Source of the DNA: an uncultured Lachnospiraceae bacterium
GTDB lineage: Bacteria; Bacillota; Clostridia; Lachnospirales; Lachnospiraceae
Length of the DNA: 64,000 nt
Reading direction: 5' to 3'
NCBI GenBank assembly: GCA_900317825.1
Contig: ONIH01000003.1
Coordinates: 23,048-87,047, forward strand
Of this stretch, positions 30,095 through 58,166 are shown piece by piece. The notes beneath the pieces were generated by a model. It searched no databases, had not been told where the DNA came from, and saw only the letters and a list, made by a program, of their open reading frames with translations. The position numbers were made by a program, and so were the translations under genes. Positions within the stretch are counted from its first letter, which is position 1; the number at the start of each line of letters is the position of its first letter.

Positions 30095-31057
30095 TTACCT
30101 CATGCAGATATATACGAGGTAAACGACGTACATCAGGATCATCACGATGCCCTCTGGTTTCGTGAGTTTCTTGTCCTTAAAGCAGAAGAGCCATACGACG
30201 AACGAGAATACGATCAGCACTATCGTGTCGATGATATTCTCCGTGCTGATGGTGACCGGAGTGATGACAGCTGCGACACCGAGAATAGCCAGGATGTTAA
30301 ATATATTTGAACCAACGGCGTTACCGACAGCCATATCCAGCTCATTTTTGCGGGCTGCAACGATAGAAGTAGCAAGCTCCGGAAGAGAAGTACCGCAGGC
30401 CACTATCGTAAGACCGATAAGAGTTTCGCTTACACCCATGGCACGGGCTATTTTTTCAGAAGAATCAACGACAAAGTCGCCGCCGAACTTTATGGCGATG
30501 ATGCCGCCTATGATGTAGATAAGCGACTGCCAGAGCGGAAGGATCTTTATATCCTCATCTTCCTGTTTTTCCTCAGCATTTTCGGCCGCTGTTTTTCTGC
30601 TGACCATCGTCCTGTGGACCATCGACCAGATGAAGTATGCGAAAAGTATCAGGAAGATGATACCGCACACTCTGTTCAGTTTTCCAAGAACCAGCCCCAG
30701 GACCACGATCAGGATCGCTGCAAAAATCGAGAATGGCAAGTCAGCAGTGATGACCGACTTCTGTACAGCGAGCACTGAAAAAATCGCCGAGCAGCCGAGC
30801 ACTACCATCAGGTTAAAAATATTTGAACCGACGACATTACTTACTGCGAGCTGGTTGTGTCCGGCGATAGAAGAAGTCACTGAAACTGACAGCTCCGGAA
30901 GTGAAGTACCCATAGCCACGATCGTCATGCCGATCACAAGCCCAGGGATATGGAACTGTCTTGCAACTGATGAGCTTCCATCGACAAAGAAATCCGCTCC
31001 CTTTATCAGGAGCACAAATCCTATCAGTAGTAAAATAACCGTCAAAAACATCTGCAT
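30095..31057 (-). CDS. Calcium/sodium (CaCA, YrbG-like) antiporter
   Basis: Two alpha repeats GTSLPEL...SNVVGSNIFN and GTSLPEL...GNAVGSNIFN. Confidence 0.92.
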   Translation of the reverse strand: MQMFLTVILLLIGFVLLIKGADFFVDGSSSVARQFHIPGLVIGMTIVAMGTSLPELSVSVTSSIAGHNQLAVSNVVGSNIFNLMVVLGCSAIFSVLAVQKSVITADLPFSIFAAILIVVLGLVLGKLNRVCGIIFLILFAYFIWSMVHRTMVSRKTAAENAEEKQEDEDIKILPLWQSLIYIIGGIIAIKFGGDFVVDSSEKIARAMGVSETLIGLTIVACGTSLPELATSIVAARKNELDMAVGNAVGSNIFNILAILGVAAVITPVTISTENIIDTIVLIVFSFVVWLFCFKDKKLTKPEGIVMILMYVVYLVYICMR

Positions 31058-31073: not shown

Positions 31074-31655
31074 TTATTCCAAACCCATCAGATGAGTTAT
31101 CAGAATCCTCGTACCTATCACTATCAGTATCAGACCTCCGACCAGCTGCGCGCGTTTTTCGAACTTCGAGCCGAAGATATTACCTATATAAACGCCTCCG
31201 AACGAGATGACAAAAGTCGTAACTCCGATTATCGAAGCAGCCTCAAGTATATTAAAGTGCGGGGTGAACGAAAAAGTGACTCCGACCGCCAGAGCGTCGA
31301 TGCTTGTCGCAACCGCCATCATCAGCAGTTCCTTGGCGTCGAGTGGAGGGTCCATTTCTTCGATCCTAGGCTTGTCATTCCATTCCTTGACGGCTTCGAT
31401 CGACATTTTTCCACCTATATATAGTAATAGGAAAAATGCGATCCAGTGATCGATGCTCCGGATGTACCTGGCAAAAGTGCTTCCAAGAAGCCAGCCTATC
31501 AGAGGCATCAGCGCCTGAAAACCGCCAAACGCAAAGGCTATCGCCAGACATTGTCGTTTGTTCACTTTTCGCATCGCAAGGCCCTTGCAGACCGCGACCG
31601 CCAGGGCATCCATCGACAGACCGACACCCAGGAGAAAAATCTCCAGCACATTCAT
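31074..31655 (-). CDS. mntP: Manganese efflux pump MntP
   Basis: GLSMDALAVAVCKG, FQALMPLIGW, ATSIDALAVG; start moved to the ATG at 31655 after GGAGG. Confidence 0.92.
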   Translation of the reverse strand: MNVLEIFLLGVGLSMDALAVAVCKGLAMRKVNKRQCLAIAFAFGGFQALMPLIGWLLGSTFARYIRSIDHWIAFFLLLYIGGKMSIEAVKEWNDKPRIEEMDPPLDAKELLMMAVATSIDALAVGVTFSFTPHFNILEAASIIGVTTFVISFGGVYIGNIFGSKFEKRAQLVGGLILIVIGTRILITHLMGLE

Positions 31656-31737
31656 AAGCTGCCTCCATACACACTTCACAAAATAGCCACAAAATATCAA
31701 CACGCAGATATCTTGATTTCTGTGGCTTTCCACCGAG

Positions 31738-31966
31738 TTATCCACTTTATCCACAATCAGAATGTGAACAGAACAGAATTTCTTCTGTAAAAATCACCCG
31801 GAATAAACAGTTATCCACAATACTTTTCCACTTCTCAAATAGGCGTTAAAAAAATAAGACTCCTGCACAAAGCCTGTAAAATCAATGCTTACAGCCTTCA
31901 TGCACGAGTCTCATTCTTTAAAATCTGCCAGGAGCTGCTACAGTTATCCACACGAGCTGTGGATAA
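31738..31966. promoter_or_regulatory. DnaA-box cluster distant from oriC
   Basis: Perfect TTATCCACA at 31747, 31811 and 31944, TGTGGATAA at 31958; one-mismatch boxes at 31738 and 31824. Confidence 0.8.
31848..31910 (-). terminator. Riboswitch expression-platform terminator in the mntP leader
   Basis: Minus strand: GACTCGTGCATGAAGGCTGTAA-loop-TTACAGGCTTTGTGCAGGAGTC then TTATTTTTTT; the 5' arm overlaps the P1 3' strand. Confidence 0.8.
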
Positions 31967-32035
31967 AATACTGTGTTCTTCCGGGATTGTTGACAGATCA
32001 CACCAAAGGGATGCGAATTACTCCCTCACACATAC
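31900..32035 (-). ncRNA. yybP-ykoY (manganese) riboswitch
   Basis: P1 AUGUGUGAG/CUCGUGCAU, L1 GGGAGUA with opposite GAGAC, P1.2 AUUC/GAAU, L3 UGUCAACA closed by UCUG/CGGA, upstream of mntP with an overlapping terminator. Confidence 0.8.
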
Positions 32036-32057
32036 TTTTTCAGTTAAGTTTACGAGT

Positions 32058-32086
32058 AGTATAAAAACTTTTTCCGTTAAAGTCAA
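32058..32086 (-). promoter_or_regulatory. SigA promoter of the mntP leader
   Basis: TTGACT-N17-TATACT on the minus strand, just upstream of the riboswitch. Confidence 0.8.
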
Positions 32087-32173
32087 TACACACGCGTGTA
32101 CTTTGCTCCGTGCAAGGTGACAGAGGCCCGTTTAATGTCACCTTTTAAAGGGGTTTCAAGAAGCATTTTTTTA

Positions 32174-32182
32174 TGATATAAT
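32174..32182 (+). promoter_or_regulatory. Extended -10 promoter of tyrS
   Basis: TGATATAAT about 85 bp before the tyrS ATG; weak -35 (TTTCAA). Confidence 0.6.
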
Positions 32183-32266
32183 GAGCAAATGTTTGCAGAA
32201 CTTTTTATGATAATAAACGGATATATCGTCAAGCTGTAACGCTTAAACTATTTATCTGGAGGTATT

Positions 32267-33484
32267 ATGACATTATATGATGAACTGGTTGCCCGCGGAC
32301 TTATCGCGCAGGTGACAGATGAAAAAGAGATAAAGGACCTGGTAAATAACGGAAAGGCCACTTTTTACATAGGATTTGATCCGACCGCCGATTCACTGCA
32401 TGTAGGACACTTCATGGCGATGATCCTGATGAAGCGTCTCCAGCAGGGCGGAAACAAGCCCATAGCCCTTATGGGTGGCGGAACTGCCATGATCGGTGAC
32501 CCGTCAGGCCGTACAGACATGAGAAAAATGATGACGACCGAGACCATCGATCATAACGTCGAGTGTTTCAAGAAGCAGATGAGCCGCTTCATCGAATTCG
32601 GCGAGGGTAAGGCGCGCATCGTAAATAATGCCGACTGGCTCAGGAACCTGAATTTCCTGGATTTCATGCGTGACATAGGACCGTGCTTCTCTGTAAACGA
32701 TATGCTGCGTGCCAGATGCTATGTGAACAGACTTGAGAAGGGACTCTCGTTCCTCGAGTTTTCATACATGCTGATGCAGAGCTACGACTTCCTCCGCCTG
32801 TACGAAGATTACGGGTGCAACATGGAGTTCGGCGGCGATGACCAGTGGTCGAATATGCTTGGTGGTACTGAGCTTATCAGAAAGAAACTCGGAAAAGATG
32901 CTTACGCTATGACCATCACCCTCCTGTTAAAGCATGACGGCACGAAGATGGGAAAGACCGCCGGCGGCGCTGTATGGCTCGACCCTGACAAGACTTCGCC
33001 TTACGACTTCTACCAGTACTGGAGAAACGTCGACGACCAGGATGTCCTCGGCTTCCTAAGAAAAATGACCTTCCTTCCGCTCGAGCAGATCGATGAGATG
33101 GACAAGTGGGAAGGCGAGCAGCTCAACGAGGCAAAGAAGATCCTCGCTCACGAGCTGACATCAATGGTTCACGGCGAGGACGAGGCAAAGAAGGCTGAGT
33201 CAGCAGCTATTTCCGTATTTACGACCGGCTCCGCTGAGAATATGCCTGAAGCCCAGATCTCAGACAGTGACTTCAAGGATGGCAAGATCGACATCGTAGG
33301 CGTTCTCGTCGCCGCAAAGCTCGCAGGTTCGAGAAACGAAGCCCGCAGGGCAGTAGAGCAGGGCGGTGTTTCTGTCAACGGTGAAAAAGTAACCGATATC
33401 CACACTTCATACGAAACTGCTGATTTTTCAAAGGATTTCGTACTGAAAAAAGGAAAGAAAAAGTTCTGCAAAGTAGTGATGTAA
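32267..33484 (+). CDS. tyrS: Tyrosine--tRNA ligase
   Basis: YIGFDPTADSLHVGH, GGDDQWSN, KMGKT, C-terminal S4 domain. Confidence 0.97.
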   Translation: MTLYDELVARGLIAQVTDEKEIKDLVNNGKATFYIGFDPTADSLHVGHFMAMILMKRLQQGGNKPIALMGGGTAMIGDPSGRTDMRKMMTTETIDHNVECFKKQMSRFIEFGEGKARIVNNADWLRNLNFLDFMRDIGPCFSVNDMLRARCYVNRLEKGLSFLEFSYMLMQSYDFLRLYEDYGCNMEFGGDDQWSNMLGGTELIRKKLGKDAYAMTITLLLKHDGTKMGKTAGGAVWLDPDKTSPYDFYQYWRNVDDQDVLGFLRKMTFLPLEQIDEMDKWEGEQLNEAKKILAHELTSMVHGEDEAKKAESAAISVFTTGSAENMPEAQISDSDFKDGKIDIVGVLVAAKLAGSRNEARRAVEQGGVSVNGEKVTDIHTSYETADFSKDFVLKKGKKKFCKVVM

Positions 33485-58009: not shown

Positions 58010-58166
58010 TTATCAACTTTATCCACATTTTTTGTTGATAAGTCTGTTCTCTTTTTGTGATGATTAGTGAATCTGATACTATAGCAGCACTTGCGACACC
58101 GCTTTCAGCCTCTGGAATAGGCATCATCAGGGTCAGTGGAGAAGATTCCATTTCACTTGTGGATAA
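58010..58166. promoter_or_regulatory. DnaA boxes at the jag-mnmE junction
   Basis: TTATCCACA 58019, TGTTGATAA 58033, TTATCAACT 58010, TGTGGATAA 58158. Confidence 0.65.

Follow-up and report, generated by a model that had tools for sequence, protein, structure and literature searches.

The 5' leader of mntP in an uncultured rumen Lachnospiraceae, an organism known only from MAGs, carries a dense cluster of DnaA boxes, part of which lies in the DNA of a predicted manganese aptamer. Comparison of related leaders makes it reasonably probable, in our judgement, that the locus is a selected Bacillus-type non-origin DnaA-box cluster or operator in a riboswitch leader. Why place DnaA boxes in the leader of a metal exporter? 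If DnaA does bind there, a DNA-binding protein and a metabolite-sensing RNA would share a single sequence in a compact, natural setting, and manganese export in gut and rumen Firmicutes would seem to be tied to replication status in a way so far unsuspected. Non-origin DnaA-box clusters are so far known from few model species, and the leader described here embeds one partly in aptamer-arm DNA.

DnaA boxes in the mntP leader and elsewhere in the genome

The window, by which we mean the whole stretch of DNA analysed (64,000 nt), holds mntP and its divergent neighbour tyrS (Table 1), and the 611-bp gap between the two contains all of the leader boxes. Every box lies inside the mntP 5' leader because the predicted promoter maps to 32086-32058, with a predicted transcription start near 32051; all are found between this promoter and the mntP ATG (31655). 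A box scan recovered the four perfect TTATCCACA boxes (31747, 31811 and 31944 on the plus strand, 31958 on the minus strand) and the two weaker ones that a preliminary description had reported within 230 bp of the leader. The weak box at 31824 is kept in the present genome (G000), G013 and G002 only. Besides the inverted pair at 31944/31958, three to six boxes occupy the spacer of ~190 nt that runs from the riboswitch terminator to the ribosome-binding site, and in the invariant 13-mer at 31762-31774 the sequence CTGTTCACA may be read as a DnaA box.

Table 1. Coordinates of the mntP leader, its boxes and the surrounding features, numbered from the first letter of the window
Feature	Position	Strand	Description
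Na/Ca-exchanger gene	30095-31057		begins 16 bp after mntP
mntP	31074..31666	-	ribosome-binding site GGAGG 31666-31662; ATG 31655; Pfam PF02659, E 2e-53
Box-like CACTTCACA	near 31673-31681		conserved island of putative function
Degenerate CCACA/CACAA-type boxes	31676..31734		conserved; CTTTCCACC 31726-31734, ATAGCCACA 31683-31691; extend towards the ribosome-binding site
Small palindrome CTGTGGCTTTCCAC	31720-31733		conserved island of putative function
One-mismatch box TTATCCACT	31738	+
Abutting tandem boxes TTATCCACT+TTATCCACA	31738..31755	+	17/18 columns invariant in five genomes
Invariant 13-mer, sense GTTCTGTTCACAT	31762..31774		contains weak, oppositely oriented box-like CTGTTCACA
Perfect DnaA box	31811..31819	+	TGTGGATAA on the mntP sense strand; -164 from ATG; invariant in five genomes
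Weak box TTTTCCACT	31824..31832	+	1 mismatch to TTWTNCACA, 2 to TTATCCACA
Intrinsic terminator	31848..31918	-	long imperfect hairpin 31918-31855 and U7 31854-31848
Predicted manganese aptamer, yybP-ykoY class	31896..32037	-	three-way junction without P4; own model R1, 78.6 bits
P1.1	32033-32025 with 31908-31900	-	paired strands
L1	32025-32019	-	GGGAGUA
P3.1	31999-31991 with 31930-31923	-	paired strands
Variable P3.2 arm	about 31983-31931	-
Inverted perfect pair TTATCCACA-gctcg-TGTGGATAA	31944..31966		9-bp distal stem of the P3.2 arm
Predicted mntP promoter	32058..32086	-	TTGACT-17-TATACT, 10/12 matches; conserved in five relatives
tyrS	32267..33484	+	divergent neighbour of mntP
dnaA	53519-54889	-
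oriC boxes	55056, 55147		upstream of dnaA; both perfect
jag-trmE cluster	58019..58166		two perfect boxes and one near-perfect

The 64-kb window has 13 matches to TTWTNCACA, a number that none of 100 shuffles attains (3.7 +/- 1.9), and the whole 1.94-Mb assembly of 53 contigs holds 31 perfect boxes where ~17 would be expected. Because the stem makes its second box automatically, we scored the inverted pair at 31944/31958 as one event; with this restriction, a Poisson model puts the chance of three boxes or more in a given 230 bp at ~1e-9 to 8e-9. A whole-genome scan found four perfect boxes within ~230 bp at the mntP leader and at C24:16244-16468 only; equally dense clusters, which the preliminary description had named as telling against its reading if common, are thus rare in the genome. 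The second of these loci (G000:C24:16244-16539), outside the window, is a 394-bp gap with six boxes; the gene downstream encodes an OGG-type DNA glycosylase (PF07934), and an HTH/Uma2-like gene lies next to the cluster. Perfect boxes with matching spacing in G002 and G013 probably belong to the same cluster.

There are six clusters of DnaA boxes in the genome in all, and others, at dnaA-rpmH, dnaA-dnaN, jag-trmE and the gap between murC and the dnaD/dnaB-like gene with dnaI, lie at typical DnaA targets. The dnaA-rpmH gap, part of oriC, has two perfect boxes and dnaA-dnaN has three one-mismatch boxes. The leader had been said to have as many perfect boxes as oriC itself: the count of four is right, but two of these (58019 and 58158) belong to the separate jag-trmE cluster, which corresponds in position to B. 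subtilis DBC[thdF-jag] (PMC3245932). In the gap between murC and dnaD/dnaB-like (PF07261) plus dnaI (G000:C28:12275-12443), the abutting double box TTATCCACTTTATCCACA occurs twice. This module is the same 18-mer as leader positions 31738-31755, and it is kept upstream of dnaD/dnaI in G013, G003, G007 and in another genus, G022 (loci L021, L022, L023 and L017); the boxes of this gap probably reflect DnaA control of the helicase-loader operon. We read TTATCCACA as the working DnaA box of the lineage because the same 9-mer marks the expected DnaA targets, and the genome, judged by its box content, has a Bacillus-like small set of DnaA-box clusters. About 6 kb past the end of the window (G000:C16:93180-93211), an inverted perfect pair TTATCCACA-3-TGTGGATAA together with CTATCCACA sits between convergent trmB and a D-Ala-D-Ala carboxypeptidase gene, and G004 has a pair of the same spacing; as this is not a riboswitch, inverted pairs recur outside riboswitches. 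Perfect TTATCCACA boxes number 79-80 in each of G001, G007 and G008, against 10-20 for a reversed control word, and are far fewer in G000 (31) and G002 (32).

The GC-skew minimum and the gene-strand switch fall together at ~55 kb (53.3-55.9 kb), beside dnaA, and therefore place oriC there, 22-23 kb from the leader boxes; dnaA coordinates and GC skew thus agree with the separation of ~23 kb first proposed. The distance from mntP to dnaA is 23 kb in G000, 19.5 kb in G001 and 126 kb in G002; mntP lies near the origin in every genome that has both genes on one contig.

We rejected tyrS as the target of the boxes: its own promoter lies more than 200 bp away, and its adjacency to mntP is not conserved while the boxes stay with mntP. 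An Rfam search for a T-box upstream of tyrS gave no match. On the tyrS side (32087-32266), an extended -10-like TGATATAAT lies ~90 bp upstream of tyrS, and a plus-strand hairpin with a T-rich tail (32117-32143) is not conserved in relatives. All five clade-A genomes (G000, G013, G002, G004 and G006) share an invariant block, CTTGCACnGnGCAAAGTACA with the palindromic TTGCnnnnnGCAA, immediately before the mntP -35 (32097-32116); it is a candidate operator for some regulator. An internal promoter behind the terminator was discarded, the sole candidate being weak, non-conserved and located inside the terminator.

A predicted manganese aptamer lacking P4

The leader had been described as a Mn riboswitch, an assignment that the standard model does not return. 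RF00080 (Rfam 15) gave no match on 231, 1001 or 64000 nt, even at E values up to 10, and its only genome-wide match, at C19:158905, lies inside a glycoside-hydrolase gene and was dismissed as spurious; it found none at 12 related mntP loci and nothing above cut-off over 61 Lachnospiraceae genomes. RF00080 misses the element because P4 is absent and because the model scores even the E. coli mntP aptamer below 45 bits: this is the gathering threshold, and the validated E. coli aptamer itself reaches only 41.6 bits. R1, a covariance model that we built only from Clostridia mntP leaders, recovers the E. coli mntP aptamer with 21.5 bits (E 0.003) where RF00080 places it, and the R1 element has a single occurrence in the genome.

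An invariant GGGAGUA ... GUCAACA ... CUGGC ... GAGACU core is common to some 40 mntP leaders of Lachnospiraceae, Oscillospiraceae and other Clostridia. RNAalifold recovered P1.1, P1.2, P2 and P3.1 from 38 sequences, with compensatory changes in 13 of the 23 pairs (for example GAUUUG/CAAAUC, GGCAAG/CUUGCC and GACCAG/CUGGCC), and L1 GGGAGUA, GUCAACA and CUGGC are all invariant in this set, the conserved family L1 core being GGGGAGUAG. The leader cores agree with the RF00080 consensus shown for the E. coli control, UUGGGGAGUAGC and GUCAACAUACU...UGGC. The family L3 consensus of yybP-ykoY is ACAUACU (PMC12153347); many relatives keep it, whereas the genus differs from the family in reading ACAAUCY, as it does in not being scored by RF00080. 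The 3' strands of P3.1 and P1.2 are joined by UUAAA alone, with no P4, in 38 of 38 sequences, and the leader does not form the four-way junction (P1, P2, P3, P4) of RF00080. A three-way junction of another kind, without P2 where the present aptamer is without P4, has been described for the yybP-ykoY element of E. coli alx (PMC12153347).

With a manganese exporter (MntP, PF02659) encoded downstream, we assign the leader RNA to the yybP-ykoY class as a covariation-supported, P4-less manganese aptamer with predicted Mn2+ binding. The original riboswitch call thus stands as to class, through covariation and the R1 match to E. coli mntP, but it must accommodate the missing RF00080 match and the absence of P4. 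The P4-less aptamer occurs upstream of mntP in ~40 of the 80 Clostridia loci examined (L025-L101). A widespread manganese aptamer of Lachnospiraceae and other Clostridia is therefore invisible to the current Rfam model, which matters for riboswitch annotation.

The leader also has an intrinsic terminator, which a simple terminator scan missed and which hairpin finding combined with folding located. The P1.1 3' strand CUCGUGCAU (31908-31900) either pairs with 32033-32025 or joins the 5' arm of the terminator, and the leader layout, as modelled, is the classic manganese-ON antitermination design.

Conservation of the boxes and of the aptamer arm

Leaders were compared across 11 genomes of the genus and G021. 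Boxes are present in the mntP leader of 9 of the 11 genomes, though the upstream neighbour differs: tyrS adjoins mntP in six, divergently only in clade A and upstream on the same strand in G012, and the neighbours differ elsewhere, so that the boxes stay with mntP. Clade A, whose DnaA proteins are 90-97% identical, has the arm pair and boxes at -164, -100 and -91 from the ATG. G012 has one perfect box in the arm and two behind the terminator, at -51 (one mismatch) and -30 (perfect); G001, G007 and G008, with DnaA 76% identical, have one perfect box in the arm and one or two before the ribosome-binding site; and G010 and G003 have none in either place, with a short arm and a spacer of only ~30 nt. 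In the clade-A alignment (five genomes), 26 of 27 box columns behind the terminator are invariant versus 91 of 176 other columns (Fisher p = 3e-6). Aligning the leaders of relatives had been proposed as a check, and by this count, as by the re-registered arms described below, the boxes are conserved beyond base-pairing needs.

In the box-free leaders the arm is short and the spacer ~30 nt, so the added leader length of the other genomes seems to serve to accommodate boxes. An aligned TGTGGATAACU occurs even in the most distant lineages, and the box is therefore probably ancestral to the genus and was later lost in G010 and G003, together with arm and spacer. Outside the genus, none of ~70 mntP leaders has boxes, bar L041. 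This leader, from a Eubacterium sp. MAG, has TGTGGATAA and TGTGGAAAA (one perfect, one near-perfect) 20 bp apart just before the ribosome-binding site; we rejected it as an independent gain, as its 3.1-Mb genome holds 56 perfect boxes and one case in ~70 leaders can be put down to chance. Its terminator-mntP spacer (L041:1100-1440) is ~330 nt long and made of short tandem repeats with units like GTACATGCAGAG, and the two DnaA-type boxes follow this repeat spacer. A metagenome scan with the genus-specific L3 16-mer yielded 80 fetched loci, of which one, L175, is a true leader and a near-duplicate of G007.

Is the inverted pair in the P3.2 arm kept as RNA or as DNA? The minimum-free-energy fold agrees with the preliminary description in placing the pair 31944/31958 inside the aptamer, as a 9-bp stem of the variable arm (UUAUCCACA-GCUCG-UGUGGAUAA), which spans about +85 to +107 relative to the predicted start. 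Outside the genus the arm measures 8-30 nt and is box-free in nearly all relatives, and within it 8 of the 9 box-bearing genomes have at least one perfect box in the arm. In G001, G007 and G008 the stem pairs AUCCUGUG with CACAGGAU (or UUCUGUG with CGCAGAA), and a perfect TGTGGATAA spans its 5' strand and loop; these three genomes retain a perfect TGTGGATAACU in the arm though the hairpin register differs, which argues that the DNA box is conserved and not the RNA stem. In G002, G004 and G006 the 5' box is perfect and the 3' copy, TGTTGATAA, puts a C-U mismatch into the stem. G013 alone fits stem selection, a U-A to C-G change giving CTATCCACA/TGTGGATAG. Compensatory changes that destroy the boxes had been named in advance as telling against a DnaA site, and this one relative does have a compensatory change, but its boxes are weakened, not abolished. 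The arm is short and without boxes in G010 and G003, and is therefore dispensable. The pattern is that expected if selection acts on double-stranded DNA; selection for an RNA stem, or for an RNA motif of the sense strand, does not fit it, and from these alignments we regard the P3.2 arm as a site that tolerates insertions and has no function of its own in the RNA. The notion of one sequence serving as RNA arm and DnaA site accordingly survives in that two boxes do lie inside the arm, but its RNA side was overstated, given an arm that is short and box-free elsewhere and that shifts register.

Proposed function of the cluster and comparison with known systems

The cluster shares with the B. subtilis DBC type that it is clustered, rare in the genome, conserved in relatives and origin-proximal, and the earlier proposal of a non-origin DnaA-box cluster of that kind agrees with its statistics, its conservation and its mntP-leader location. 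In the mechanism that we favour, DnaA, probably as a DnaA-ATP oligomer, would occupy the leader DNA and hinder RNA polymerase, the roadblock sites being the arm boxes and an array that reaches to ~20 bp from the ribosome-binding site. This would add a replication-status input on top of the manganese-dependent antitermination of mntP, and the array, being near the origin, would also withdraw some DnaA in the manner of Bacillus DBCs; the stem that the inverted pair forms in the RNA would be a by-product of a palindromic DNA site in a tolerant arm. The cluster thus probably blocks mntP transcription and soaks up some DnaA, which suggests that replication status also acts on mntP. Several points speak against this reading. 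The boxes are dispensable, 2 of the 11 genomes of the genus being without them; the compensatory change in G013 keeps the stem and weakens both arm boxes; and we know of no physiological reason to connect DnaA with manganese export. Nor does the 9-bp spacing of the abutting boxes resemble the 2-3 bp preferred by E. coli DnaA (PMC11317965). The locus offers a clean test system, since stem and boxes can each be destroyed with the other left intact.

Could the boxes act on initiation alone? A pure DnaA sink of datA/DBC function, lodged near the origin in a long untranslated region as a harmless place and leaving mntP unaffected, would explain why the cluster is origin-proximal in G000, G001 and G002 and why its perfect boxes equal those of oriC in number, and B. 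subtilis DBCs restrain initiation largely independent of position (PMC3245932). We nevertheless think it unlikely: G001, G007, G008 and G012 have 2-3 boxes, too few for a sink, yet in the same places (the arm and before the ribosome-binding site), the boxes follow mntP through changes of neighbour, and RNA polymerase would sweep through an array placed in transcribed DNA. Regulation and titration are inseparable here because mntP is origin-proximal wherever this can be measured, but an operator role is favoured by the several genomes that have just two or three boxes, at fixed places. A cryptic or second replication origin at the leader is extremely improbable, and we rejected it on GC skew and gene strand. 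Its perfect boxes do equal or exceed those of either oriC half, but the GC-skew minimum, the strand switch and dnaA adjacency all point to 53.3-55.9 kb, not to 31.8 kb; a skew excursion at 32-34 kb is small and caused by the plus-strand tyrS, no unwinding element or DnaA-trio-like repeat was found by eye, and the region is a transcribed leader.

The repeated UGUGGAUAA might alternatively work in the RNA, as a protein-binding or pairing motif or as a functional arm hairpin, its likeness to a DnaA box being secondary. Every copy behind the terminator does read UGUGGAUAA on the sense strand, the hairpin is present in the predicted fold, and the G013 change preserves the stem. This account is quite improbable in view of the same 9-mer occurring in both orientations at oriC, at jag-trmE and upstream of dnaD/dnaI, of the sense arm copy being degenerate in G002, G004 and G006 where its complement is perfect, of the motif spanning stem and loop in G001, G007 and G008, and of ~30 related aptamers that have a short arm and lack the motif. 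Chance, or a neutral relic such as boxes from a local duplication whose decay is incomplete, would fit the loss of boxes in G010 and G003 and their absence outside the genus, but we hold it to be very improbable: the Poisson estimate given above stands against it, the boxes are invariant where roughly half of the remaining spacer varies, and they persist between lineages whose DnaA proteins are only 76% identical.

A further possibility is that transcription gates the DnaA site, manganese read-through sweeping DnaA off the array while arm-bound DnaA stalls the polymerase midway through the aptamer and alters its co-transcriptional folding. The two arm boxes, upstream of the terminator, would then always be transcribed, and the main array only when manganese stabilises the aptamer. 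Such coupling of manganese to initiation is compatible with the layout, in which the terminator splits the cluster, but it is speculation, and we hold the gated site to be improbable. If it were true, the leader would be a metal-tunable DnaA reservoir near oriC, with riboswitch and initiator regulating each other via one DNA stretch.

Against this range of readings, the preferred one, a DnaA-box cluster or operator in the riboswitch leader, finds its nearest relatives in B. subtilis, whose DBCs are bound by DnaA, control adjacent genes and hold initiation back (PMC3245932). Both are found in Firmicutes, and in both a handful of consensus-box clusters are intergenic and lie mostly near oriC, the neighbours of DBCs being DnaA-regulated genes. 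Unlike those clusters, the present one sits inside a transcribed, riboswitch-controlled leader, partly in the aptamer, and has a metal exporter as its neighbour; its occupancy by DnaA and any effect on initiation are putative. E. coli datA and DARS1/2 likewise cluster DnaA boxes in non-coding DNA, and where they lie with respect to oriC is important. datA depends on IHF and stimulates the hydrolysis of ATP bound to DnaA, and the DARS sites, with a defined three-box core, reactivate DnaA by release of ADP; the sequence criteria for datA and DARS do not transfer to Firmicutes, no resemblance in sequence or architecture was seen, and the likeness of the leader cluster to them is one of analogy only.

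For the roadblock itself there is precedent in E. coli, where DnaA/box complexes block RNA polymerase at asnC-mioC and guaB. As in those cases, the leader boxes are paired, some lie downstream of a promoter, and they could in principle stop RNA polymerase. E. coli DnaA binds box pairs, such as the double boxes at purH, nrdD and polA, which are 2-3 bp apart, unlike the abutting tandem boxes of the leader with their 9-bp period (PMC11317965). As to the gene, the E. coli counterpart is again instructive, since both organisms combine the same gene family and the same riboswitch class with protein and RNA layers of control on one exporter gene. E. coli mntP is controlled by MntR and Fur at its promoter and by a yybP-ykoY riboswitch in its leader. 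The putative protein sites of the present leader differ in being DnaA boxes, placed within and behind the riboswitch and not at the promoter; the E. coli aptamer is described in PMC12153347. We found no paper that combines DnaA boxes with a manganese riboswitch, and both mntP as the target gene and the combination with a riboswitch appear to be new for DnaA-type control.
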